From sequence record OP114734.1: DNA of 64,000 nt. One strand, given 5' to 3'. Origin of the DNA: Escherichia phage vB_ESM-pEJ01. Numbering within the stretch: position 1 is the stretch's first letter; every line of letters begins with the position of its first letter. The translations under genes were made by a program, and so were the position numbers. Positions 3,272-34,960 of the stretch are shown one piece after another. Below the pieces are notes generated by a model that saw only the letters and a program-made list of their open reading frames with translations, was not told the origin of the DNA and did no database searches.

Positions 3272-5071
3272 ATGCTAATGTTTAATAACTCCGTTAAATG
3301 GTTTACCGGAATTGTAGAAAACAGGGAAGACCCATTAATGTTAGGCCGAGTTCAGGTTAGGATTCATGGTATACATCCTTCGCTATCCGCACACGGTGAC
3401 ATTCAAGGTCTTCCAACCGAAGATCTATTATGGATTACTCCAGTACAAGATATTACAAGCGCGGCGATCTCCGGTATAGGTCAAAGCCCTACTGGTATTG
3501 TTGAAGGTTCAATGGTATTTGGTTTGGCCTTAGATGAACGTTATTTAAACTGCGTTATTCTGGGTACTATTGCCGGACAATATACAGAGAAACCACTCAC
3601 TACAGAAGGTTTTTGCGACCCTTCTGGTGCATATCCGCGTTATATTGGTAATGATGTTAATATTCTTGCTCGTGGTGGTATTAACCCAGAAACCGGACAA
3701 ACAACAAAACCTGATAGTGTCTATATTCGAGATGAAAACACTGGAGTTGCAGTAAATCCAGACGACGAGCCATTAGACCAAATTCCGGTTGACGATAACC
3801 CAGAATACACAATAGAAAAAATGCTGCGGGGCGATGAGGGATATCGCGAGAAATGGTATCTTGATTCAGAAGGATATCCGACAATAGGCATCGGGCATTT
3901 GATCATTTATAAGAAAACCAGTGATCTGGGTATTATCAATAATGAACTTTCTAAGCTGGTAGGGCGTGAAGTTACAAACGGAAGACTTACCGCCGAAGAA
4001 GTTAGCAAAGTATTTGCTGACGATATAGAAAAGACTCGCCGTGATATGCGTAAACATCCACGCATTGCACCAGTTTATAATAAATGTAATGCTTCTCGTC
4101 GTATGGCATTAGAAAACATGGCGTTTCAAATGGGCGTAGGCGGATTGGGTAAATTTAAAAATAGTCTCGCTGCAATGTTAGCAGAAGACTGGAAAAAAGC
4201 CTATGATGGATTGCGTCAATCAGTATGGGCTAATCAAACTCCAGGACGTTCTAGCCGTGTTTCTAAAATTATTCTTACTGGTAACTTAGAATCATATGGC
4301 GTAATTGCTCCAAAGAAAGAGGAATCAATTTCGGATGATCCGCGAGCACGTTTGAGAAATGCCCGTATTGCTGCCTATAAGACGCAGAGAGCAGAAGAAG
4401 ACCCAGAAGCACCGTTTACCCCACAAGACACACGAATCATGTTTAAAGAGCCTAAGAGTTCGTATTCTGCAAGGTATCCATATAACCATGTGTACGAGTC
4501 AGAGAGCGGTCATATTATCGAGATTGATGATACTCCTTCTCATGAGCGATATCATCGTAAACATCCTTCTGGTACATTTGAAGAAACCAGACCGGACGGA
4601 ACGAGGGTAGAAAAGATTGAAGGCGATGATTATCTGATCGTTAAACAAGGCCGGAAAGTAAACGTCAAGGGTAATTTGCAAGTTGTTGTTGAAGGTGACG
4701 CGCAAGTTTATTATATGGGTAATGTGATGCAAACCGTTGATGGTAACGTCACTGAATTTATTCGTGGCAATGTTAATCAGACCGTTGAAGGTACTGCTAA
4801 CATGCATGTTGTTGGTGATGTTATCGCACAGCTTGACGCTAATTTGACGGCTAACGTCAAGGGTAATGCTGAATTAATGATCGATGGTAACACTACCGAA
4901 ACAATTAAAGGTAACTATGATTTAACCGTTGAGGGTAATTTTAATATGACAGTCAATGGCACTAAATCAGATCAGGTTAATGGTGACTGGTCCCGTAATT
5001 GTGGTGCAAGCGTTAAAGATATTGCATCTGGTACAGTTAAAATTGATGGTAGCCGTATTGATCTTGGGTGA
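3272..5071 (+). CDS. 5: baseplate central spike / tail lysozyme gp5
   Basis: N-terminal OB region (WF.G.VE...LGRV.VR.HG), central T4-lysozyme-like domain (EGY..KWYLDSEGYPTIGIGHL), C-terminal beta-helix octapeptide repeats (V.G.). Confidence 0.95.
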   Translation: MLMFNNSVKWFTGIVENREDPLMLGRVQVRIHGIHPSLSAHGDIQGLPTEDLLWITPVQDITSAAISGIGQSPTGIVEGSMVFGLALDERYLNCVILGTIAGQYTEKPLTTEGFCDPSGAYPRYIGNDVNILARGGINPETGQTTKPDSVYIRDENTGVAVNPDDEPLDQIPVDDNPEYTIEKMLRGDEGYREKWYLDSEGYPTIGIGHLIIYKKTSDLGIINNELSKLVGREVTNGRLTAEEVSKVFADDIEKTRRDMRKHPRIAPVYNKCNASRRMALENMAFQMGVGGLGKFKNSLAAMLAEDWKKAYDGLRQSVWANQTPGRSSRVSKIILTGNLESYGVIAPKKEESISDDPRARLRNARIAAYKTQRAEEDPEAPFTPQDTRIMFKEPKSSYSARYPYNHVYESESGHIIEIDDTPSHERYHRKHPSGTFEETRPDGTRVEKIEGDDYLIVKQGRKVNVKGNLQVVVEGDAQVYYMGNVMQTVDGNVTEFIRGNVNQTVEGTANMHVVGDVIAQLDANLTANVKGNAELMIDGNTTETIKGNYDLTVEGNFNMTVNGTKSDQVNGDWSRNCGASVKDIASGTVKIDGSRIDLG

Positions 5072-5646: not shown

Positions 5647-5939
5647 TGGCTGGATTATCCTACGATAAAGCTAAAACTACAGGGCACGGAAACTACCCAC
5701 CTACGGTAATTAATGCAACTCAATCTAAGGTATTTGTTGAGGGTATCCCTGTATTAGTCGAAGGAGACCCAATTACACCACATACAAAAACAACAAAGCC
5801 TTATGATACACACGGGGGAACTACGGTCGCCAGTACCCCGAAAGTATTTGTTACCGGAAAGAAAGCAATTCAAATGGCAGATCGTATTAGCTGTGGCGAT
5901 ACCGTCGCTATGGCATCACCGAAGGTATTCATAAAATGA
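5646..5939 (+). CDS. 5.4: PAAR-repeat spike tip protein gp5.4
   Basis: 97 aa, same length as T4 gp5.4; start overlaps upstream stop (TAATG); immediately downstream of gene 5. Confidence 0.8.
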
Positions 5940-7840
5940 CAAAGCAAAAGATTACACAAATTCCTGATATTTTTAATGCTGCTACATTCGATGAAATTAA
6001 AAGCGCATTAACAGACTGGATGAGAAACCAGGAAGAATTTAAAGATTTTGATTTTAATGGTGCTGGTATTAACGTATTGATGGACTTGCTCGCATATAAC
6101 ACTCTGTATATTCAGCAATTCGCTAACGCCGCGCTATATGAATCTTTTATCAGAACGGCAATTAAGCGTAGTTCAGTTGTTCAAGCCGCGCAAGATTTAG
6201 GATATTTGCCAGCAAGTAAAACTAGTGCATCGACTACAATTATGTTGCACGTAACACATCCGCGAAATCCGGCAAGTATTCGAATCCCACGAGGAACTAA
6301 ATTTATTGCAAGTGTGGATCGCCAGACTTCTTACCCGTTTGTGACTACAGAAGACGTTGTGAGCGTTTTAGGTTCAAATGGTTTATATACGCCTATGCTT
6401 AAAGTCGCACAAGGTCGTATTGTTCGTACAGAGATGTTATTTGATCCGAAGAAACAAATTCTGATCCGCGATCCTGATATTGACCGCGCTCAGGTTAAGT
6501 TGTGGGTAGATGGTGCTGAATGGAAAGACTGGACGCGAGAAAGTATTGTTAATGCAACTGGCGCTAGTAATATTTTCTATATGCGTGAAACCGTAGACGG
6601 ACATACTGAAATTTTCTTTGGTGAGGGTGAATCAACTTTATCTGCCGCTGGCGGTGCACTGGAAGCAAATTATATTGGTGGACTTAAGCCGTCAACTGGT
6701 GCTAATATTGTTATCGAATATATCAGCACTAAAGGCGCGGAAGCAAACGGTTCAGTTAATTTCACATACGCGGATACATTGGCATCAATTTCTATTGTTA
6801 AAATTATTGATAATCCGACAAATGATCGTGATTATGTCGGTGCAGATGGTGGTGGTGATCCTGAATCAATCGAACGTATCCGTGAACTTGCTCCGGTAAT
6901 GCGTGAATCTCAGCGTCGTTGTGTGACTGCTTCCGACTATGAGGCTTTTGTGTCTAGCCGTTTTGGTAGTATTGTTCAGGCGGTACAATGTTTCACCGAC
7001 CGAGAAAAACCGGGTTATGCTTTTGTTGCTGTTAAGCCTAAATCTGGCTTGCGCTTGACAACCGTTCAAAAAGAAGATATGCGGGATTATCTGGCAAAAT
7101 ATAACCTTGCCCCTATCACGCCGAGCATCATTGACCCAAACTATCTGTATATTAAACAGAATATTAAAGTTTCCTATTCAATCAATGACTTATCAGAATC
7201 AGAGCAGTGGCTGCGCGGTGCGGTTATTGATCAGATTGATGCATATTATACCGACGAAGTGGAAATTTTTAACCAGACCTTTAGTAAGTCTAAAATGCTT
7301 GCGCGTATTGACAAAGCTGATGTATCTGTGATAGGTTCTAGTGCAGAAATCGAGATGGTGCGAGAGATCGACAACTTCTATAAAGCACCGATGGCTGGAA
7401 TCAAGTTTTTAAACCAGTATAAGAGCGGAATCAAGTCTAGTTCATTCAACTTCGAAAAGGACGACAAGCAATATCCAATCCATTATGTAAGTACAGAAAT
7501 GAACAAAGAATCCGGTTTAGCTAAATTGCTGGTTGGACCTTTCCCTGTTGATTCTACAATCGCTTTACCGCACTATTCCGGCACTGATTTTGATAAAGAG
7601 GTTATTGACGGGGCGGACCTATACTTTGAGGTTGGAGAGGTTCAGCATTATGACGACCTTATTTCATGGGATCTGGGTAAACTGAATATCAATAGCGATC
7701 GCTTTACTGGTTCATATATTGAGTTGACAGCTAAACCGATTGCTGATAACATCTTTACTAAAGACGGTTCTTTGATCGTGTTTGAAAACGATCTCCGTCC
7801 TCAGTACACAACTATTAGTCTGGAGGCAATTGCTCAATGA
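5936..7840 (+). CDS. 6: baseplate wedge protein gp6
   Basis: 634 aa; synteny 5-6-7-8; ATGA overlap with neighbours. Confidence 0.9.
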
Positions 7841-10800
7841 TTAAAGCGCCTAGTGTAACTAGCTTGACAATAGAAAAATTGTCTGCTAATCAGGCGTATA
7901 TCACATGGGATGACGTAGGCGAAAACTTCTTTTATTTTGTGGAGTTAGCCGAAACCAGAACACGAGACGGGGAGATCATCCCCGTCGATGAGTTAAGCTG
8001 GGTAAACCTGGGATATACTGCCGAACAAAACTGGTTTGAGGATAAAAACCTTTTTCCAGAATATTATTACAAGTTTCGTGTAGCAGTAGCCGCAGAAGGA
8101 TTTGAACAAAGTAAATGGGTTGAGACAGAAGAGTTTCAGACATTTAAAACAAACGCATATAATTTTTCTATGATGCGAGAGTTCAACCTTGCAAACGAGT
8201 TTATAAAGGAAAAATTTACATACGATAATCGAGAGTATGTCAAGTTTAATACTGACCTGATTCAAGCATCATTGATGAAGGAAGATTTTGTCTTTAGTCC
8301 TGAATATGCAAACATGACAAATATCTCAAACTACATTGTAGTTGATGAGAACTTTCATGAAATACAGGACCACATAGAAAAAGTTTGTACTGATATAAAC
8401 CGCACTATGTTAGCGGAAATGAACGGTGTTTTGTACCTTTTCGAACGGTTCCAGCCGATCGTGAAAGTGTCAAATGATAAAGGCCAATCATGGAAAGCAT
8501 ACAAGGCTTTTAATGACCGTGTAGGCAATCCGGTTTCCCGTACATGCGTTTATCAGTCTAAAACCACTACTTACGTTTTAGGATATGACCGAATCTTTTA
8601 CGGACGACAAGCGAACGATACTCGATGGAGCGCGGACGATGTTCGATTTAGTGATGATACGATCACTTTTGCAAAGGTCGGTGACGAAAACGATTTAGGC
8701 TTTGACGTTGAGGTCTTTGGTGTATTTTCCAGATTAACAGGTGATACCACAAAATACGCCGAAGCTATGGCGTGTAGTGATGACTATTTGTGGGTTGGTG
8801 CTAAAGATGTTATTCGCCGGATTCGTCTTAAGAATACTCCTGTTGATACCGTACAGGGTTCGCCTACGTTTGGAGAAAAAATATTCGATCCTGATGTTAT
8901 CCGAGTAACAGGAAATGATAAAGCTGTCATTCAGAAAATGGATGTGATCGACGGTAAATTGCTTGTATTTGTTACGGGTGAAGTTAAACAGCGTTATCAA
9001 GATCCAACTAAACCAGAAAACGTTGTTCCGTCAGATGATGCGGGTGTATACTTAATAGGGAGTGATGGTCTGTCTTTTCAGAGAGTATTTGGCAACACTC
9101 CGCAGGAAAGGGAATATATTCAGCATGGGTTCAGTAATATGTCAACCAATGGTGATGAGGTGTTCATAAGCCATTATAATCATCACTTCGAAAGCATTTT
9201 ACCTGATCCAGAAACTGCCGAGAAATATGAATTGGGAGAAGCTGTAAAATATTCTCATGAGCCAACTTATCTAACTGATAAGAAAATACATCAAACTACT
9301 TTCAGAGCAAGTTATGATGATTTGCGTATTTGGGAGTTAGGACCGCAAGCGTATTATAATGAGGCCGATTATACATGGATGCGTCGAAACGGTGTCCGTG
9401 TGTGGATCACAAATGATAATCGCCCGTTGGTTGTTTATCCAGAGGTTATCTATACTCAAGAAGTTGATACATCTGGCATTCTTGACCAAAATAGGATCAA
9501 CCGAGAAGTTTATGATAAAGGGACCGTGACCTGTTATCTTAACAATGTTAAATTTGAAGGATTCAAACAATATGCATCCGGTGTAATGTTCCATAAAAAC
9601 ACAGGAGAGATCATAGGATTCTATCAATTTAATTATCGTGTTCGTGATCAGGTTGGTGTATATTGGAAACCTACAAATGTAGCATTTGTTGCTGAATTGC
9701 AAAATCAGGTTCGAGAGGTTCCCTGGGTTCCGGTTCACTACGATCGAGAGCAAGATCCAGATTTGCGGCCTTTACTGAATAAGATGACCCCTGATAGCTT
9801 TTTACTTGAGAACGAAAATTTCAGAAAATTCTCTGAATATTATCTGCAATTCTTAAGTGATGGTTCAGGAACATATTATAATAAACTAAAAAATCTGATT
9901 AAAAACAAATATCCACGCGAGCAAGATGCATATGAGTATCTTTGTTCAGAGATGAACAAACGAAACATCTATGCAGATAAAAACAAGCGAGATGCGGTCG
10001 TAAGATTCTTTGAATCCCGCAAATCAGATTTTTATTCCACTAAAGGCGTGGAGGCTTCTTATAAGTTCTTGTTTAAGCTACTTTATAATGAAGATGTGGA
10101 AATTGAGGTTGAATCACAAGCCGGACTAGAGTATGATATTGTTGTTAGTTCAACGAACATTGACGAGGATATCGTAGGTCGCACGATTTATACTCCAACC
10201 GGACGGGCTAACGTGACGTATCTTGAAAGGGAATATGAAGGTGGTCGCCTACGCTGGCGAGTAACCATTCATAACCTGATCGGGCGGTTCGAAGAAGGAC
10301 AAGTGATCAAATCAGAGAAAACAGCGTTTGAAGGGATGATCCTTGTTGGTGTACGTGGTAAAGAGTTGTTGAGTAGTTCAATCGACTATATCAACCGATC
10401 ACGAAGCCAATACACCATGAAGATTAAAAGTGCATTGCCAGTTTCGCGCTATGCAAATGATGTAATGCGATTCGTTCATCCTGTCGGCTTTGGGTTTATC
10501 GGTGTTACCCTGCTTACAATGTTCATTAACAGCGGGTTAAGCATGAAGCACACCGAGACTATAATTCAATCTCTGAAAAATTATAAGTTTGACAGCGGAT
10601 TGCCTAGCGTGTATCCTGATCGGGTGGCAGACCTTGACGTTGACGGAAACATTAAGAAAGACCCGCTTACCGGAAAAGCATTATATTTGACTTCACCTTT
10701 AATCGGTGATGAATTTCCGGTTCCTCCTGAATATGATCAGGAGAACAGCGAATTGTTCCACGGACTTAAAGCAAGCGAACGAAGATTTGCAATGAGTCCA

Positions 10801-10923: not shown

Positions 10924-11911
10924 TGAAAATAGTGTGATCTATCGCTCAATCATTACTAGTAAATTCAGAACGGAAAAACTTCTGAATTTCTATAATTCTG
11001 TAGGCGATGGGGCAAATCAAATTACAATTTATGGAACGTTTGGACGTTCGGAGCCGTGGTCAGAAAACGAAAAAGAGGTGGGCTTTGCCCCACCTTATCC
11101 GACCGATTCAACGGCTGGTGTTGTTGATATGTGGACCCATATGATGGGGGCGGTTAAGATTAACAAATCACTTCTTGATGCGGTTATCCCTCGTAAAGAT
11201 TGGGGTGATACCGGACAGGATAACCCGCGCACATTCTTTATCAATGACATTGTTGTTGTCAACTCAGCACCATATAACAGAACTGATGTTGGTAGCGGCT
11301 GGATGGTGTATCGCGTAACCGATGTTCCTGATCGCGGTTACTGCTCGATTTCAAGCATTGACGCTAAAGTAGAGTGTTTGAAGTTGGGCGGAAAGTGGAC
11401 ACCCACGCATGAATCAATTGCGCCACCTGTAGGAAAGGGCGATTCTATTGATATGGGTGATGGGTATCGTTGGGAATATCTGTACACAATTCCACCTGAT
11501 GCGGCGATCAACCGTTGCACCAATGAACATATTGTTGTACCGTTCCCCGATGAACTGCGACAAGATCCGGCGCGTTGGGGATATGATAATGTGATCACCT
11601 GGTATAATGACTATAATCTGCTTTATCGGCTGAAAGTAGTAACTTTGCGTTTTCAGGCTTATATGGACTCTGCGCAATTCCCAACTACCGCGTTAGTGGG
11701 TAATACTGGTTTCCGTCAGTTAAGCATTATCCTTAACCCATTGGAAAAGAAAGCACGCCCTAGCGATCCAGACGTTAAAGCGGTTCAAGATAAGTACCGT
11801 CCGCAAGACTTAGAGCCACACTCAGGCGAAATGATCTACATGGAAAACCGACAACCTATCGTTCGGTCATTAGATCAAACAGAACTTGTTTCTGTATTGT
11901 TTGAGTTCTAA
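10916..11911 (+). CDS. 8: baseplate wedge protein gp8
   Basis: 331 aa; synteny; overlaps gene 7 stop. Confidence 0.9.
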   Translation: MANENSVIYRSIITSKFRTEKLLNFYNSVGDGANQITIYGTFGRSEPWSENEKEVGFAPPYPTDSTAGVVDMWTHMMGAVKINKSLLDAVIPRKDWGDTGQDNPRTFFINDIVVVNSAPYNRTDVGSGWMVYRVTDVPDRGYCSISSIDAKVECLKLGGKWTPTHESIAPPVGKGDSIDMGDGYRWEYLYTIPPDAAINRCTNEHIVVPFPDELRQDPARWGYDNVITWYNDYNLLYRLKVVTLRFQAYMDSAQFPTTALVGNTGFRQLSIILNPLEKKARPSDPDVKAVQDKYRPQDLEPHSGEMIYMENRQPIVRSLDQTELVSVLFEF

Positions 11912-11925
11912 GTGTATGATTTAAA

Positions 11926-11952
11926 AGCCAATTCGAGAGAGTTGGCTTTTTC
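11926..11952 (+). terminator. intrinsic terminator after gene 8
   Basis: hairpin AGCCAA...TTGGCT followed by TTTTT. Confidence 0.6.
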
Positions 11953-11963
11953 CATTTTTGGTG

Positions 11964-11991
11964 TTGACAATCTTATTTGGTAAGGTATAAT
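11964..11991 (+). promoter_or_regulatory. sigma70-like early promoter (TTGACA-N16-TATAAT) driving the inserted cassette
   Basis: -35 TTGACA 11964-11969, -10 TATAAT 11986-11991; leader begins ACACACAT as in the PeSL units at 52-60 kb. Confidence 0.6.
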
Positions 11992-12020
11992 ACACACATC
12001 TAAACAACGGAGGATAAATT

Positions 12021-12278
12021 ATGGCACGTCGTAAATTTACAGATAATTGTGAAGCAATTCAGGTATCCCCTTGCGGTTGGGATGTGATCGCGAATGGTGA
12101 AAAGATCGGAGAGATCATCGATCATACTCATTCATCACTAGCCGATTATACCGATGAACTATGGGAGGGTATCAACTTCATGAATGACACTAAACGATTC
12201 AAGACTATTGATGAAGCTATACATTTTGTGTATAATCCAACTTTCGGTATGTGGAGTGATAGAAAATGGCACGCGTAA
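12021..12278 (+). CDS. hypothetical protein (85 aa)
   Basis: ATG with RBS GGAGGA; first gene of the inserted cassette. Confidence 0.5.
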   Translation: MARRKFTDNCEAIQVSPCGWDVIANGEKIGEIIDHTHSSLADYTDELWEGINFMNDTKRFKTIDEAIHFVYNPTFGMWSDRKWHA

Positions 12279-12598
12279 ATATTAAATTGCATTACACAAT
12301 GAATAAAGCTAAGTTCCCAATGCAAAAGCATTACTATGGTCTACGTGCACAAGATCCTAAACTCTATGGTACTCATTGGTTTTGTAAACATGATAACCAA
12401 TGGCACACATACGAAGAAATGCACGAGATGATGAAACAGGGTATTGAATTTAGTTATTCTAATTATGACCATCGTATAACTTGCATTCGAAAATTGAAAC
12501 GATGGATTCGTAAGAATCCGCAATTTAAAAACTTTGTGTTCTTTATGTCTCATACTTATCTGGGGCATAGCGTTACCGTAACAGCAAAGGTTAAATAA
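12266..12598 (+). CDS. hypothetical protein (110 aa)
   Basis: overlaps upstream ORF by 13 nt and downstream ATG by TAATG, suggesting translational coupling. Confidence 0.5.
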   Translation: MARVNIKLHYTMNKAKFPMQKHYYGLRAQDPKLYGTHWFCKHDNQWHTYEEMHEMMKQGIEFSYSNYDHRITCIRKLKRWIRKNPQFKNFVFFMSHTYLGHSVTVTAKVK

Positions 12599-13437
12599 TG
12601 GCACGACTTTCTAAACAAGAACAAAAATTACACGACCGAGCAATGGAGTTGATTAATTCAGATCGTCCATTGACATTTGAAGAAAAAGAATTTTGCTATA
12701 ATAACTATCATGGCGATGGGCTAGGTGGTTCCGGTGCATTCTTTACCCCAGAATGGCTTGCCTGGGATTTTACCATTGACGCACACTGCACAGGAAAAGT
12801 ATTAGATCTTTGTGCTGGGATCGGTCGCTTATCTTTTTGTATGTTACATCGTTGTAAGCCAGAAAAGATCGTATGCGTCGAACTCAATCCAGAATTTGCG
12901 CGGATTGGCAAGAGACTATTACCGGAGGCAGAATGGATCACCAGCGATGTATTCGAATTTGAGTCAAACGAAAAATTCGATGTGGTGATCAGCAATCCAC
13001 CTTTCGGGAAAATCAATACAACCAACACAAAGGATGTATTTGAGTACACTGGCGGCGAATTTGAATTTAAGGTTATGACATTAGGCCAGAAGTTTGCCGA
13101 TGTTGGCTATTTTATTGTTCCTGTGGGTTCCGCTGGTTTTGCTTATTCCGGCAGACCTTATTATGACGGGACCATGAAGTCTAATAAATATATAAAATGG
13201 AGCAAACAAACTGGTTTGGTGACTTATGCCGGATGTGGGATTGATACATCAATCTATCGCGATGAATGGCACAGTACCAACGTTTTAACAGAAGTGGTTG
13301 AGGTTCGGTATTACGAGAAAGAAGCCGTAGAAGCGCCTAAATCACGCCCTAACGAACAAATAGAAGAAAGTAAGGAGATTACCTTACCGAAACAGGAAAG
13401 CGAGTCTTGGACGCTCTCAGATTTGTTTGACATTTAA
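12598..13437 (+). CDS. putative N6-adenine DNA methyltransferase, gamma-class motif order
   Basis: FFTP motif, then AdoMet motif I VLDLCAGIGRL, then catalytic NPPF about 60 aa later. Confidence 0.7.
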   Translation: MARLSKQEQKLHDRAMELINSDRPLTFEEKEFCYNNYHGDGLGGSGAFFTPEWLAWDFTIDAHCTGKVLDLCAGIGRLSFCMLHRCKPEKIVCVELNPEFARIGKRLLPEAEWITSDVFEFESNEKFDVVISNPPFGKINTTNTKDVFEYTGGEFEFKVMTLGQKFADVGYFIVPVGSAGFAYSGRPYYDGTMKSNKYIKWSKQTGLVTYAGCGIDTSIYRDEWHSTNVLTEVVEVRYYEKEAVEAPKSRPNEQIEESKEITLPKQESESWTLSDLFDI

Positions 13438-13441
13438 TTAT

Positions 13442-13467
13442 AAGCCGTCCTTGTGGGCGGCTTTTTT
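13442..13467 (+). terminator. intrinsic terminator after the methyltransferase cassette
   Basis: hairpin AAGCCGTCC-TTGT-GGGCGGCTT followed by TTTTT. Confidence 0.65.
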
Positions 13468-13477
13468 GTATGTATTT

Positions 13478-13485
13478 TATAAATA
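13478..13485 (+). promoter_or_regulatory. T4-type late promoter TATAAATA upstream of gene 9
   Basis: exact TATAAATA 28 nt upstream of the gene 9 ATG. Confidence 0.55.
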
Positions 13486-13512
13486 ATACATCATAACATG
13501 AGGAATTAAACA

Positions 13513-14367
13513 ATGGCACAAGTTCCAAAGAAAAGAATAGACACAGGTACTGTCGGCAATCCATCGACTGGCGATATCTTATATGATGGCGGTAATAAAA
13601 TTAACGATAACTTTGATTCAATATATGACGCATTTGCTGATCAGCGGTTTAAAGACGTAGACCACGGCGTGGGAAGAATGGTTATTCATGCAACCGGATA
13701 CTATCAGAAGCATCCACGTCAAAGCTACGCTGGTTCCGCTGTTGAGATTGGGAGTCTACACGATATCGATACAACTCAAGGCGCACTTATTGCTATTCTA
13801 CCTAAAGCAAAGGTCGGTGAGGGTGTTGTATTCATAAATAGTAACGGTAGCCTTTCAACGACGACACCGCTCAATATTCGAACTCAAGCAGGTGATTCTA
13901 TTAGCGGTTATTCCGGTGATGCTACAATAACACAACCATTTTCAAAAGTCACTGTTTGGTGTACTGCCGTTGAAGGTAGTCGCGTAACATGGCGATTGGG
14001 TATTGAAAGTATGTTTACCGATACAACAACGCCATTAGATAAAACAGTTAACGTAACTGGAGTAGCAACAAACGTTGCTATTGCCGCAAAAACAGAATAT
14101 GTTTCCATCAAATTATTAACTACCGCTAGCAATACATCCGGTTCAAAAATGCGTTCAAGTGAAACGCTACTGATGATTGATTCTAAAGCCGGAAAAGTTT
14201 ATGCGACGGAATATGCAGTTTTGCAGAAGACAGAAGATGAACTATACACGGTTCGTTATTTCATCGGTTCCGGCGATAAAGTATATGCAGAGTATAAGGC
14301 TACTGGCGAAAATATTCGTTTAGCAGTTAAAGCCGTAGACACTATTAAAATCGGGGTTGCTACATGA
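13513..14367 (+). CDS. 9: baseplate long-tail-fibre socket protein gp9
   Basis: 284 aa; synteny 8-(insert)-9-10-11-12; N-terminal G.GD.L..GG.KINDNF motif shared with gp10. Confidence 0.85.
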   Translation: MAQVPKKRIDTGTVGNPSTGDILYDGGNKINDNFDSIYDAFADQRFKDVDHGVGRMVIHATGYYQKHPRQSYAGSAVEIGSLHDIDTTQGALIAILPKAKVGEGVVFINSNGSLSTTTPLNIRTQAGDSISGYSGDATITQPFSKVTVWCTAVEGSRVTWRLGIESMFTDTTTPLDKTVNVTGVATNVAIAAKTEYVSIKLLTTASNTSGSKMRSSETLLMIDSKAGKVYATEYAVLQKTEDELYTVRYFIGSGDKVYAEYKATGENIRLAVKAVDTIKIGVAT

Positions 14368-16166
14368 AACAATTAATTAATATCGGTGACGTTGTTGATG
14401 ACGGTACAGGTGATTATCTAAGAAAAGGTGGTCAAAAGATTAATGACAACTTTTCTGAACTTTATACTAAGCTGGGGGATGGTGATATCCCTCATGCATC
14501 CGGCGCGTGGAAAACTCACACACAACCAGTATTAAAACCAAATTTTGGTGATGCATGGGCGATTAATACAACGAACAACGCTGTTTCTGTTGAATTGCCT
14601 AAAGGAAGCGCGAGTGATTATAATAAAACAATTAAACTTCGTGATGTTTGGCGCTCATGGGCTGCACATAACGTAACGTTGAAGCCAGCACAAGGTGATA
14701 CCATTAAGGGGTCTCCAATCGACCGTGAGTTGTATAAAGATTTCATGGATGTTGAATTGGTTTATTGTGCGCCCGGACGTTGGGAATATGTCGAAAATAA
14801 ACGAGTAGATACTATCACCACTTCCGATTTAAGCACAGTCGCTAAGGAAGTTTATATTGCAACCGAAGGACAAACAGACTTCCCTAATGTGTTTGGTTCC
14901 AATACTTACAATATTCGAAATGTTGAAGTGTATTATCGCGGTAACTTGCTTTATTATGGCAAGGATTTAACCGATGATTCTAACTATGGTTCAATCGGTG
15001 AAAACGGTGATATTGTTCCTCTTGACGGTAAAAGCATTAAATTACGCTTCCCTTGTTCGGCGGGTGATACCATTCAAATCATCACTTATATGGACGGTAT
15101 CGCATCCTTCCGGTCAAGCTATATTACTCATACAATCCGCGTTTATGAAACAGGAATGACCACTTTGGAATCCATCCCAGGTGAAGTTTGGGTCGGTGAA
15201 CTTGCTAATAAGAAAGAGTTTACTAATGCTGAATTAGGCGTAAGTAAGCGAGATCTTATTAATCCAAATTCATTTGAATTGCTGATCAACGGCACACAAA
15301 TGATTAAAGCGGGTGATGCGGATTTACCTTCCTTTATTTGTGAAGGTGCTGACGGTGAAACGGAAGAAACCTGCGTACTTGCTGGCGGTCAATGGGTGGA
15401 ATCTGGTGAAGATTATTCATTAATGTTTGACGAAAACAGCGTGGTGACTGGTATTAAATTATCTAAAGCACTAGATAACAGAGACACTATCACAATTCGC
15501 TGGTTTAATAATGATATCGGAACATTAATGGAATGGGACGGTGTAGGCGGTATTAAAGAAAAAGCAGATAAAATTTATCTTAATAACGAAGATGAAGTTA
15601 CTCTGACAAATCGAATTGAATATACCGATTTCCAGAATCCAAGCCAAGCAACTAAACGCCCAATGGAAGATTATACAGGTCGTGTGATGGATATCTATTC
15701 CATCTTTGATATTTTCCATCCTATAGGCACAATTTATGAAAACGCGCATAACCCAGCTAACCCGGCGACATATATGGGAATTGGTACATGGGTACGTTAT
15801 GCGGAAGGAGAATTTCTGGCTGGTTGGTCTTCTGACGCAAGCGATCAAAACTTCGCACTAAACAACAACGATCTTGATACACATGGTCAACCTACACACA
15901 CCGCAGGTGGTAACGGTGGTGATGTTGCATACCAGATCAAGAAAAATATGATTCCTGAATTACAGAGCAACGATCGAGTTCTTGTAAAAGATGATAACGG
16001 AAATATTATTATCGGTGGTTGTCAGGTAGACCCTGATGCAGTAGGTCCAGCGTTTACCAAATATCGAGAAGATAATGTTAAAGTTAATCAGGGAAATACC
16101 GATCCATCAATGATGGGTATTCTTCCTCCATACAGAACTGTCTATCGTTGGCTAAGGGTAGGTTAA
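14364..16166 (+). CDS. 10: baseplate wedge / short-tail-fibre attachment protein gp10
   Basis: 600 aa (T4 gp10 about 602 aa); synteny; ATGA overlap with gene 9. Confidence 0.9.
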   Translation: MKQLINIGDVVDDGTGDYLRKGGQKINDNFSELYTKLGDGDIPHASGAWKTHTQPVLKPNFGDAWAINTTNNAVSVELPKGSASDYNKTIKLRDVWRSWAAHNVTLKPAQGDTIKGSPIDRELYKDFMDVELVYCAPGRWEYVENKRVDTITTSDLSTVAKEVYIATEGQTDFPNVFGSNTYNIRNVEVYYRGNLLYYGKDLTDDSNYGSIGENGDIVPLDGKSIKLRFPCSAGDTIQIITYMDGIASFRSSYITHTIRVYETGMTTLESIPGEVWVGELANKKEFTNAELGVSKRDLINPNSFELLINGTQMIKAGDADLPSFICEGADGETEETCVLAGGQWVESGEDYSLMFDENSVVTGIKLSKALDNRDTITIRWFNNDIGTLMEWDGVGGIKEKADKIYLNNEDEVTLTNRIEYTDFQNPSQATKRPMEDYTGRVMDIYSIFDIFHPIGTIYENAHNPANPATYMGIGTWVRYAEGEFLAGWSSDASDQNFALNNNDLDTHGQPTHTAGGNGGDVAYQIKKNMIPELQSNDRVLVKDDNGNIIIGGCQVDPDAVGPAFTKYREDNVKVNQGNTDPSMMGILPPYRTVYRWLRVG

Positions 16167-31395: not shown

Positions 31396-32982
31396 ATGAA
31401 AACTACCAAAGAACTGATGGAAAAATGGTCCCCACTGCTGGAAAACGAAAAACTGCCGGAAATCGCAACTGCGTCTAAGCAGAAACTGGTTGCTAAAATT
31501 CTGGAATCTCAGGAAGCGGATTTTGCTGTAGACCCGATCTATAAAGATGAAAAAGTTGTTGAAGCATTTGGTGGCTTTATCGCAGAAGCAGAAGTTGCTG
31601 GCGACCACGGTTACGATGCAAATAAAATCGCCGCAGGTCAAACTACTGGTGCAATCACCAACGTAGGTCCGGCTGTTATCGGTATGGTTCGCCGTGCTAT
31701 TCCTAACCTGATCGCATTTGATATCTGTGGCGTTCAGCCGATGAGCACCCCGACTAGCCAGATTTTTGCAATCCGTTCTGTATACGGTGCTGATCCGCTG
31801 AAATCCGGTGCTCGCGAAGCATTCCATCCGATGTTTGCACCTGATGTATTCCATAGCTCTCTTGCTGCTAAAGATGCTACCGCACAGTCTCCGCTGGGTA
31901 CTGCGTTCCAGAAACTAACTATGTCCAATGCTATCAATGTTGGTGATATTGTTTATCACGTATTCGCAGAAACTGGTATTGCTTATCTGCAAAACGTTTC
32001 CAGTGCACAGGTTACTCCGGCGAAAGTAGGTCAGGAATCCGAAGATGAAGTTGTAACCAAACTGATCGAAGAAGGCAAACTGGCAGAAATCGCGCATGGC
32101 ATGGCTACTTCCATTGCAGAAATTCAGGAAGGCTTTAACGGTTCCAGCAATAACCCGTGGTCTGAAATGTCAATGCGTATCGACAAACAGGTTGTTGAAG
32201 CGAAATCTCGCCAACTGAAAGCTCGTTACTCTATCGAAGTTGCGCAGGATCTGCGTGCTGTACACGGTATGGACGCTGACGCTGAACTGAATGCTATTTT
32301 GGCTAACGAAGTTCTGTTGGAAATCAACCGTGAAATCGTTGATGTAATCAACTTTACCGCTCAGGTTGGTAAAACTGGTATGACTCAGACCGTTGGTTCT
32401 AAAGCTGGTGTATTTGACCTGCAAGACCCGATCGATACTCGCGGTGCTCGTTGGGCTGGTGAATCCTTCAAATCTCTGATCTACCAGATCGACAAAGAAG
32501 CTGCTGAAATCGCTCGTCAGACTGGTCGCGGTGCTGGTAACTTTGTTATCGCTTCCCGTAACGTTGTAAACATTCTGGCTTCTGCTGATCAGGGTATCAG
32601 TCTTGCTATGCAGGGTGCTGCAAAAGGTCTGAATACCGACACCACTAAAGCTGTTTTCGCTGGTGTTCTGGCTGGTAAGTACAAAGTGTTCATCGACCAG
32701 TATGCTCGTCAAGACTACTTCACCGTAGGTTACAAAGGCGACAACGAAATGGATGCTGGTATCTACTATGCTCCGTATGTTGCTCTGACTCCGCTGCGTG
32801 CAACTGACCCGCAGTCTTTCCACCCGGTTCTGGGCTTCAAGACTCGCTATGGCATCGGTATTAACCCGTTTGCAGACAGCAAATCCCAGGCACCGTCCGC
32901 TCGCATCACCTCCGGTATGTTGAGCAAAGACAGCGTAGGTAAAAACGCATACTTCCGTCGTGTATGGGTTAAAGGTTGCTAA
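31396..32982 (+). CDS. 23: major capsid protein gp23
   Basis: 528 aa; strong codon bias typical of a highly expressed gene; paralogous to downstream gp24 (shared ELMQDLEA and SANPY motifs). Confidence 0.97.
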   Translation: MKTTKELMEKWSPLLENEKLPEIATASKQKLVAKILESQEADFAVDPIYKDEKVVEAFGGFIAEAEVAGDHGYDANKIAAGQTTGAITNVGPAVIGMVRRAIPNLIAFDICGVQPMSTPTSQIFAIRSVYGADPLKSGAREAFHPMFAPDVFHSSLAAKDATAQSPLGTAFQKLTMSNAINVGDIVYHVFAETGIAYLQNVSSAQVTPAKVGQESEDEVVTKLIEEGKLAEIAHGMATSIAEIQEGFNGSSNNPWSEMSMRIDKQVVEAKSRQLKARYSIEVAQDLRAVHGMDADAELNAILANEVLLEINREIVDVINFTAQVGKTGMTQTVGSKAGVFDLQDPIDTRGARWAGESFKSLIYQIDKEAAEIARQTGRGAGNFVIASRNVVNILASADQGISLAMQGAAKGLNTDTTKAVFAGVLAGKYKVFIDQYARQDYFTVGYKGDNEMDAGIYYAPYVALTPLRATDPQSFHPVLGFKTRYGIGINPFADSKSQAPSARITSGMLSKDSVGKNAYFRRVWVKGC

Positions 32983-33067
32983 TATAAGCCATTCCTGAAA
33001 AACTCCGGTCGGGTGCAATACCCGACCTATCATAAACCTTATGACAGTGTAAAGTGTTAATTCCAAA

Positions 33068-33096
33068 GGGAAGACTCGAAAGGGTCTTCCCTTTTT
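33068..33096 (+). terminator. intrinsic terminator after gene 23
   Basis: hairpin GGGAAGAC...GTCTTCCC followed by TTTTT. Confidence 0.7.
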
Positions 33097-33112
33097 GCGT
33101 ATTATATCCCGT

Positions 33113-33120
33113 TATAAATA
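33113..33120 (+). promoter_or_regulatory. late-promoter-like TATAAATA in the 23-24 intergenic region
   Basis: exact TATAAATA just after the gene 23 terminator; target unclear. Confidence 0.45.
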
Positions 33121-33481
33121 AGGTTGCAAGCCTATATTCTATTGGGAGCGAAAATAGATACACACAACAAAGACAGGAAGATGCAGAACATCGGTGGGTT
33201 GCTAGCCTAAATCCGGTGGCTATGATATGTGATTTCTTTTGATGCTGGATTTATTAAAACACAACAAACAATTCCACCAATTTTCGTAGTAACTGCATGG
33301 CAAAGGGACCAATGAATGAAATGAGCGTTCATGTTGATATTGGGTCGGATAGATTTGGTAGATATACAGATCTGGTGTATGCCGACCTTGTTATGACATT
33401 CCAGTGTGACGCTAGCGGTAATTTTTGGTTTTGGTACGCTGTTCCCCGAATTAACCCAAAATTCTCCATAAGGAGGAATGC

Positions 33482-33634
33482 ATGAGTAAGAAAGAAAACA
33501 GCTATGTTATGACTCGTAAGGAATACAACGAATTGATGTTAGCATTAGCTTATGCAATTATTCGTTCTGATCATGCAATTAATCTGGTAAACAAAGTTAA
33601 CCGTAGCGTTGATAATGTTTCTAGGAAGAAGTAA
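33482..33634 (+). CDS. possible small protein (50 aa)
   Basis: ATG preceded by strong RBS AAGGAGG; lies in the 23-24 intergenic region. Confidence 0.35.
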   Translation: MSKKENSYVMTRKEYNELMLALAYAIIRSDHAINLVNKVNRSVDNVSRKK

Positions 33635-33673
33635 GTTTATTTTTGGAATCCTTTGGATTCCTTTTTCTTTTTG

Positions 33674-33681
33674 TATAAATA
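33674..33681 (+). promoter_or_regulatory. T4-type late promoter TATAAATA upstream of gene 24
   Basis: exact TATAAATA about 38 nt upstream of the proposed gene 24 ATG. Confidence 0.55.
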
Positions 33682-33718
33682 TGATATATCCATTAAGGCA
33701 AATACAGGATTCATAAAC

Positions 33719-34960
33719 ATGACTCATATTTTTACTGAACTGTTGCGGGAATCTACTTCCTCAGTAGCTAACCAGACAGCGCGACCGCAACTATTATCAT
33801 TAACTCGCGCGGTAAACAACCTGATTTTCTCTGATCTGGTAGCAATCCAGCCAACGGATCAACCAGTATCTGCATTGTACGGCCTACGTTATCTTAATCA
33901 TGATGGTCAGATGACTTTCCGAACTGCTGCGACCTACGGTGGCGCGGCTGGTGATCGCACAGAGATTGAAGAGTTTTCAAAAGAAAAATCTTATGAAGAA
34001 GGCGCACTATTCAAATCAGGCGATGTTGTATACGAAGTTGTGACCGCTGGTACAGTCGGTGAAGATGCCGCAACTCCAGAAGCTGCGATCTTTAAAGGCG
34101 TAATGACAAACAAAATTCGTTTCTATAGCGATTGTGCATCGGTAGAATACTTTGAAGATAAAAACACCGAAATTTCGTCTACCTCTATGCAGTTTGATAA
34201 ATGGCAGGTTAATGTAGGTTCTCGTAAACTGAAAACCTCATTCACGACCGAATTGATGCAGGATCTTGAGGCAAGCCAAATCAACTCTGAAAACTCTGTA
34301 ATTGATCTTCTGGCTACTGTTGCTTCCGAAGAGATCAACAAAGATATTATTCAGAAGTTGATCACTGTATCATCTCGCTATAAAATTAAAGGGATCACCC
34401 CTGATGGCGTACTTTCTCTCGTTAGCGTTCAGGATGCACCAACACAAGCGCGTGAACTTTACCGCTACGCGTGCGAAATGAGCAATCAAATGTTGCGTAC
34501 TTCCTCCTTTGCTGGTACATACGTTTTGGCTTCTTCTCGCGTGGTTGGCCTCCTGCAATCTACCGGGTGGATGGAAGAAACCGACAATGCTCTAAGCGAA
34601 GGTCGTCTACGTTGCGGTCTGGAAGTGTACGCAGACACGACAACACCTTTCGATTATATGCTCGTTGGTTGTAAGCACATGATCGGTGATATGGAGAGTG
34701 TAGGTTCTCTGTTCTACTCCCCATATACAGAAGCCGACGGCGCTGGCGCGTATAAGAGCGTAATTGACCCTAATAGCTTCCAGCATCATGTAGCTATTAT
34801 GAATCGTTATTCACTCTCTGTCAACCCATACACATCAAAAGTTGATCAGGAAGAACACCAGGTCATCAAGGGTGACGATTGGGGTAAAATGGCTGGACGT
34901 TCAGAAATGTCCTACATTTTAGGAATCGAACTGCCACCGCTTGAGATTGACAACGCTTAA
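33719..34960 (+). CDS. 24: capsid vertex protein gp24
   Basis: start moved to ATG at 33719 giving MTHIFTELLREST..., matching the T4 gp24 N-terminus region (ELLRESTT); gp23 paralog. Confidence 0.9.
   Translation: MTHIFTELLRESTSSVANQTARPQLLSLTRAVNNLIFSDLVAIQPTDQPVSALYGLRYLNHDGQMTFRTAATYGGAAGDRTEIEEFSKEKSYEEGALFKSGDVVYEVVTAGTVGEDAATPEAAIFKGVMTNKIRFYSDCASVEYFEDKNTEISSTSMQFDKWQVNVGSRKLKTSFTTELMQDLEASQINSENSVIDLLATVASEEINKDIIQKLITVSSRYKIKGITPDGVLSLVSVQDAPTQARELYRYACEMSNQMLRTSSFAGTYVLASSRVVGLLQSTGWMEETDNALSEGRLRCGLEVYADTTTPFDYMLVGCKHMIGDMESVGSLFYSPYTEADGAGAYKSVIDPNSFQHHVAIMNRYSLSVNPYTSKVDQEEHQVIKGDDWGKMAGRSEMSYILGIELPPLEIDNA

Follow-up and report, generated by a model that had tools for sequence, protein, structure and literature searches.

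Why does a T4-type phage keep 736 nt between genes 23 and 24, with an additional late promoter and only small ORFs? The window, the whole 64,000-nt stretch of DNA that we analyzed, belongs to a Krischvirus (RB49-like, Straboviridae, T4-type phage), and its gap (32983-33718) is matched along its entire length in 52 Krischvirus genomes at 95-99.5% identity. ORF and annotation checks placed gene 23 at 31396-32982 on the + strand and the start codon ATG of gene 24 at 33719 on the same strand. A preliminary description had reported this gap, the late promoter motif TATAAATA at 33113, ORFs of 62 and 50 aa, the Shine-Dalgarno (SD) sequence AAGGAGG, and a gene 24 promoter, and every one of these features was confirmed in its place. 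ORFs of 50-64 aa are frequent on both strands of the gap, so that ORF length is no sign of a gene here, and conservation alone distinguishes the true gene (50 aa) from a remnant (62 aa). The comparison with related phages, which the description had proposed as a check, provided the explanation of the gap, because these relatives hold an intact operon in its place. The gap is very probably the scar of an ancestral late operon, left by two deletions in the RB49-type clade. It is a case of ordinary gene loss without any new element, and apparently an undescribed one; neither an account of the locus nor krischvirus transcript or proteome data were found in the searchable literature.

The intact form of the locus is present in six of the 58 GenBank krischviruses (Brandy, G2248, UPWr_E1, SSG23, SFHK24, and JK32), in which genes 23 and 24 are separated by 3.4-5.3 kb. 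The same cassette was found on one IMG/VR contig and on several metagenome contigs, and it is common in metagenomes. On the late strand, it encodes proteins of 102, ~570, and ~309 aa, followed by the 50-aa gene; the operon of JK32 (MK962753) has an additional 614-aa coiled-coil protein (8422-10266 of locus L010), annotated as 'tropomyosin-like'. In all six cassette genomes checked, one TATAAATA, homologous to that at window position 33113, heads the block and none occurs inside it. The lone motif at the head, together with an end at the homologue of the intrinsic terminator T2 (described below), therefore indicates that the cassette is one late operon. Where present, the cassette genes are under purifying selection (omega 0.08-0.17). 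Brandy (MZ504876) is the nearest cassette-bearing relative of the clade that carries the scar. At ~5828-5830 in its locus coordinates, a 1-nt deletion (TTTAAAT to TTTAAT) splits the 570-aa gene into ORFs of 250 and 327 aa, which represents either decay preceding the deletion or a sequencing error.

Homology to Brandy tiles gap bases 33000-33718 collinearly, in three separated blocks with 88-96% identity. The first block (window 33000-33166; Brandy locus 4626-4793; 96%, E = 1e-74) comprises the terminator of gene 23 and the promoter with its leader, reaching to the 102-aa start codon, and the second (33167-33329; Brandy 6278-6438; 88%, E = 1.5e-54) corresponds to a mid-portion of the 570-aa gene. 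The third (33311-33718; Brandy 7618-8026; 94%, E = 1.7e-180) runs from the 3' end of the 309-aa gene through the 50-aa gene and T2 to the promoter of gene 24. This three-block pattern was repeated with ten cassette-bearing loci. Relative to Brandy, ~1.5 kb and ~1.2 kb are missing between the blocks, and a third deletion is seen in part of the clade, with short repeats at all three deletion junctions. At junction 1, one copy of GATGCACAC lies where the 102-aa gene starts and a second lies 25 nt short of the right breakpoint, whereas junction 2 lies in AGCGTT, part of an imperfect AATGA..AAAT.AGCGTT repeat; these positions are approximate, as the exact junction bases are not fixable and small later indels blur junction 1. 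The third deletion is exact, with JSE, phiS, 011D4, and others having lost the 97 nt between two copies of the direct repeat ACACAACAAA (33162-33171 and 33259-33268). The sole portion of the gap with no counterpart in the operon-bearing relatives is the 17 nt at 32983-32999. Here, directly 3' of the gene 23 stop, ~16 nt (TAAGCCATTCCTGAAA, 32985-33000) were observed in all scar-type genomes and in no cassette-bearing genome.

The surviving pieces of the three lost genes are all damaged. In the dead start of the 102-aa gene (33140-33160, + strand), the SD sequence AAGGGGAG has become ATTGGGAG, and the start codon ATG has become ATA at 33158-33160. Remnant 1, 163 nt from the interior of the ~570-aa gene (about residues 395-450; 33167-33329, + strand) with 88% identity to Brandy, carries indels of +2, -1, and +1 relative to the intact frame. 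Remnant 2, the last ~45 codons (~140-160 nt) of the ~309-aa gene (about 33330-33471, + strand), still ends at the original stop codon TAA (33469-33471) but has two indels of -1 near the junction and one of +1, an extra T in the run at 33422-33426. Across these fragments, constraint was quantified in 12 scar-type genomes, in which the remnant zone (33160-33475, 316 nt) was 11.1% variable and had accumulated 12 indel events (1 to ~97 nt, 10 of them not multiples of 3), as against 0.7% for the 50-aa ORF (153 nt), 5.8% for the last 260 nt of gene 23, and 3.7% for the first 300 nt of gene 24, all three free of indels. Fisher tests separated the remnant zone from coding DNA for both substitutions (11.1% vs 0.7%, p = 1e-5) and indels (12/316 nt vs 0/713 nt coding, p = 6e-7). 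With their partial homology, broken frames, relaxed constraint, and derived loss (see below), the fragments in the gap appear to be gene remnants in the full sense of the term.

The 62-aa ORF (33297-33485, + strand) reads, in these alignments, as a chimeric frameshifted remnant. Its first codons come from the out-of-frame 570-aa fragment, its middle (VDIGSDRF...DASGNF) is still in the authentic frame of the 309-aa C-terminus, and its end is frameshifted. Only genomes that carry an additional A at ~33302-33304 have the ATG at 33297 in frame, and most relatives stop at TGA 33447-33449, where the window and TB34 have CGA. Owing to these lineage-specific limits, databases hold the remnant as a 45-aa 'family', phrog_20809, which the C-terminus of the full-length 309-aa protein matches with an E value of 2e-20. 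The best-surviving alternative, although a very unlikely one, is that the deletion created a new, functional small late protein, either this ORF or its 45-aa core (33312-33449). The ORF follows a late promoter, a weak SD-like AAGGGA precedes ATG 33312, and the core, which may be weakly translated, is open in 8 of the 12 genomes, has a CDS annotation in many records, and is grouped as phrog_20809. The value of that grouping is lessened, since phrog_20809 is just a match to the C-terminal end of the intact 309-aa protein, and the openness of the frame is not shared even between genomes with 97-99% identity, among which both start and stop vary. The ORF is broken in RB49 (+4 nt) and 011D4 (-11 nt), and JSE and phiS shift to another frame at its end, with phiS lacking 12 nt. 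Its density of variable sites is that of non-coding DNA. The suggestion in the preliminary description that the gap is a locus for small late proteins was thus borne out for the 50-aa ORF but not for the 62-aa ORF, the start and stop of which differ among near-identical genomes.

The 50-aa gene (RB49p162 / phrog_16600; 33482-33634, + strand) shows the opposite pattern, being intact throughout the genus, with a full-length copy in each of the 58 krischvirus records. Its SD sequence AAGGAGG (33470-33476, + strand) lies 5 nt before the ATG and is invariant in all aligned krischvirus genomes but the most divergent, JK32. The ORF is a full-length member of phrog_16600 (E = 1.5e-38), a family with neither an assigned function nor relatives outside Krischvirus-like phages, and it is annotated in RB49. 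Among 50,697 phage records, no others gave a match (E <= 1). When 1.84 billion representative proteins were searched with a profile, four relatives emerged, all of 48-50 aa with a conserved core, one of them encoded on a divergent contig, directly 5' of a homologue of gene 24, and an IMG/VR search with the 50-aa protein yielded two loci only. Compared with JK32, synonymous sites of the gene are saturated (26.8 differences over 27.8 sites) with a dN of 0.285, and compared with G2248 the dS is 0.24. At these larger distances its synonymous variation is like that of its neighbors, which argues that the constraint acts on the protein. Taken together, these comparisons identify the 50-aa ORF as a real orphan late gene under purifying selection and the last member of the operon. 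The protein has no Pfam, NCBIfam, or PDB match. Because the gene always lies directly before gene 24, a role in virion morphogenesis might be guessed at.

The signals that framed the operon are still recognizable. The late promoter motif TATAAATA at 33113-33120 (+ strand) is an exact match to the T4-type motif and is conserved in JK32, which keeps it although its flanks have diverged to ~75% identity. The gene 24 late promoter TATAAATA (33674-33681, + strand) starts 45 nt before ATG 33719. The window contains 10 TATAAATA matches, as against 6.07 expected, and at least 10 occurred in 8 of 100 shuffles; their number, alone, is not significant. Nine of the 10 matches lie on the + (late-gene) strand, and TATAAATA is found 40-45 nt upstream of the start codons of genes 22, 23, and 24 and, where relatives retain the lost operon, of its first gene. 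In all cassette holders, the site corresponding to 33113 is 45 nt 5' of that first operon gene. This arrangement makes it very probable that the 33113 promoter once drove the lost 102/570/309/50-aa operon, which would account for its presence as an additional late promoter. No other recognizable promoter is left 5' of the 50-aa gene. A sigma-70 promoter scan detected weak sites only, at chance level, one of which (33199-33226) lies inside segments that relatives have deleted.

In T4-type late promoters, the TATAAATA motif spans -13 to -6 (PMC1524935), which predicts a transcript start at about 33126, and a gp55 is listed for RB49 (PMC2988020). In JSE and phiS (L004 and L017), which belong to the same sub-lineage with the third, 97-nt deletion, CATAAATA replaces TATAAATA at 33113. 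Position -13 is the least conserved of the late promoter motif, RB49 included (PMC1524935, PMC2988020), and the effect of this change is therefore uncertain. It may represent further decay of a dispensable promoter or a tolerated -13 variant.

Upstream of the promoter, gene 23 ends in the intrinsic terminator T1 (33065-33097, + strand), with a 13-bp stem, a GAAA loop, and a U tail. Its hairpin (33065-33094) has a dG of -20.9 (z -5.45), it carries a terminator annotation in GEC-3S, TB34, and G2248, and JK32 retains the stem with changes on both sides (alignment read by eye). At the operon end, T2 (33645-33672, + strand) consists of GGAATCC-TTT-GGATTCC followed by a U-run (dG -9.2, z -3.91), with a conserved stem and a loop that varies in Brandy and JK32. 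A further GC-rich hairpin (33007-33028; dG -15.6, z -4.27) lies 25 nt past the end of gene 23, and its conservation extends to JK32. No U-run follows it on the + strand, but on the - strand GGAGTTTTTC does, which makes it terminator-like in that direction; for this reason it may stop antisense transcripts, or it may instead stabilize the 3' end of the gene 23 mRNA.

A late promoter followed by ~360 nt with no conserved ORF, in a segment kept in most genomes, could also suggest that these promoter-proximal 360 nt form a small or regulatory RNA with a defined structure, or a leader that regulates the 50-aa ORF. This alternative is slightly less likely still than a functional remnant ORF. An Rfam scan of 32500-34200 returned only fstAT, located elsewhere, with E = 1 and 21 bits against a gathering score of 72 bits, and the minimum free energy of the leader (33121-33481) is weaker than that of its shuffles (z +1.40). 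The 12 indel events of 1-97 nt among close relatives fall in this same leader, the sequence of which is coding-gene debris. The RNA locus mentioned in the preliminary description consequently found no support, with no Rfam match and a leader that folds worse than shuffled sequence and is riddled with indels.

The position of the gap invites comparison with T4, which carries segD, a GIY-YIG homing endonuclease gene, directly 5' of gene 24, making this junction a known landing site in the family. The preliminary description was right that T4 has a homing endonuclease gene near here, segD lying between genes 23 and 24, but the decayed DNA of the gap is not that of an endonuclease. No GIY-YIG or HNH signal was found in its ORFs. 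That the gap held a decayed or replaced homing endonuclease gene at the position of segD is hardly credible, given that 88-96% identity to the Brandy fiber-like operon over 33000-33718 leaves no room for another relic, that an ORF-based scan of the gap found no Pfam endonuclease match, and that the homologous full-length genes are fiber-like rather than nucleases. The two loci are alike in their position between capsid genes, one that is tolerant of optional DNA in T4-type phages. They differ in that T4 has a GIY-YIG homing endonuclease on the opposite strand, whereas the window has the remnants of a same-strand late operon and the 50-aa gene and no nuclease. The variable regions of T4-type phages are known to contain pseudogenes left by deletion, such as truncated homing endonuclease genes (PMC2993671). 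The scar resembles these in its frame-broken fragments, short-repeat junctions, and fast accumulation of indels, but here a structural-type late operon in the head cluster was lost instead of a mobile element, and one operon gene was spared together with the promoter and terminator.

The direction of change was read from the gene 24 tree, in which the scar genomes group closely at the tips (1.3-1.7% divergence), as one clade nested among cassette-bearing genomes. Gene 24 divergence is 3.8% for Brandy, 6-8% for SSG23, UPWr_E1, and G2248, ~12% for the metagenome contigs, and 20% for JK32. The cassette-bearing genomes are paraphyletic, and JK32, the deepest branch, is among them. The nested position of the scar clade and the isolated internal gene fragment together indicate that the loss is derived and was a single event. 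The reverse reading, a recent insertion of the cassette in a minority with the RB49-type gap as the ancestral empty site, has next to no likelihood: its one argument, the presence of the cassette in just 6 of 58 GenBank records, is outweighed by the paraphyly of the cassette holders with JK32 deepest and by cassette contigs that are common in metagenomes, and it is already refuted by the 'empty' site itself, which holds frameshifted internal and 3' fragments of cassette genes, an isolated internal fragment being something that insertion cannot produce. The earlier phrase 'decayed or replaced insertion' can accordingly be kept for the decay but not for the insertion, since 33000-33718 is tiled by homology to the ancestral operon.

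Loss of the ancestral operon would have proceeded as follows. The genes for 102, ~570, ~309, and 50 aa, up to T2, would have been driven in the genus ancestor by a single late promoter, the TATAAATA that now lies at 33113. Two deletions totaling ~2.7 kb would then have occurred in the common ancestor of the RB49-type phages, the first of ~1.5 kb between the GATGCACAC copies and the second of ~1.2 kb within the imperfect AATGA..AAAT.AGCGTT repeat. The survivors would be the promoter, the dead first start, the 163-nt piece of the second gene, ~140 nt of the end of the third gene, and the 50-aa gene with its ribosome-binding site and terminator. The fragments probably drifted neutrally thereafter, and one sub-lineage dropped the 97 nt between the ACACAACAAA repeats. 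During late infection, a gp55-type polymerase would presumably start at ~33126 and produce a transcript of ~545 nt, with a leader of ~356 nt of debris followed by the 50-aa gene and a stop at T2. Only the 50-aa ORF would be translated to purpose, and we infer that its protein is needed independently of the lost fibers. Promoter use, transcript ends, translation, and the role of the protein are in each case predictions drawn from the sequence; observed directly were the homology tiling, the broken frames, the difference in indels and substitutions, the spread across genomes, and the direction in which the locus changed.

As for what was lost, the 570-aa protein contains a collagen-like GEQGxxGEKGExGRG run. 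Its AlphaFold model (pLDDT 61) matched phi812 baseplate receptor-binding proteins (E = 9e-10) and the R1 pyocin fiber (E = 1.3e-8), with further matches to the receptor-binding protein of lactococcal phage 1358 (E = 2e-5) and to many TNF/C1q jelly rolls, and a faint XkdV_N Pfam match is on record for its homologues. Over its first ~116 residues, the JK32 614-aa protein aligns to the N-terminal part of the 309-aa protein (37% identity, E = 9e-14), suggestive of a common module for attachment onto which different shafts and heads can be exchanged. The lost 570- and 309-aa proteins are candidates for trimeric receptor-binding fibers. When the gap ORFs and cassette proteins were scanned against Pfam, PHROG, and NCBIfam, only two function-less PHROGs, coiled-coil noise, and weak tail-fiber PHROGs emerged, and PDB sequence searches gave no match for the 102-, 570-, and 309-aa proteins. 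The receptor-binding fibers used for comparison were those of R1/R2 pyocin, phi812, lactococcal 1358 and bIL170, and AP22 gp53, as well as proteins with collagen repeats and C1q/TNF-type knobs. In contrast to these, the cassette proteins have no Pfam or NCBIfam match above the curated cut-off, their models are moderate (pLDDT 61 and 75), and their genes lie between capsid genes and outside the tail-fiber cluster.

A more tentative proposal, on balance doubtful, is that the operon is an undescribed accessory receptor-binding fiber set whose presence or absence acts as an adsorption or host-range switch, with the 50-aa orphan being an essential genus-specific late protein that possibly acts with the gp24 vertex protein. 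If so, one protein would combine a collagen repeat with C1q/TNF-like knobs and another a coiled coil with a lectin-like head, in a set that is intact in Brandy, G2248, SSG23, JK32, and many metagenome contigs and lost in RB49 and most isolates. Irrespective of the function, RB49, the type phage, and most cultured krischviruses have lost a fiber-like operon that their wild relatives kept, and Brandy, G2248, or SSG23 set against RB49 would offer a natural comparison for a fiber role. The 50-aa orphan protein appears to have been retained by selection through the loss of the operon. For annotation, the 45-62-aa 'hypothetical proteins' and phrog_20809 should be corrected to pseudogene debris, and RB49p162 should be treated as a real conserved gene.

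Two features of the flanking regions were also observed. Residues ~133-256 of gp23 (window ~31792-32163) are hypervariable, with dozens of amino acid changes among otherwise near-identical genomes; relative to G2248, the whole-gene omega is 0.24 for gene 23 and 0.06 for gp24. The idea that gp23 differences track cassette presence was rejected, as block 133-256 also varies among scar-type genomes. We take this block to match the exposed part of gp23, in which case it would point to diversifying selection. In the metagenome krischvirus-like contigs L023-L026, two genes for Ig-domain proteins (411 and 847 aa, Hoc-like) were found on the opposite strand downstream of gene 24, at ~11619-15457.
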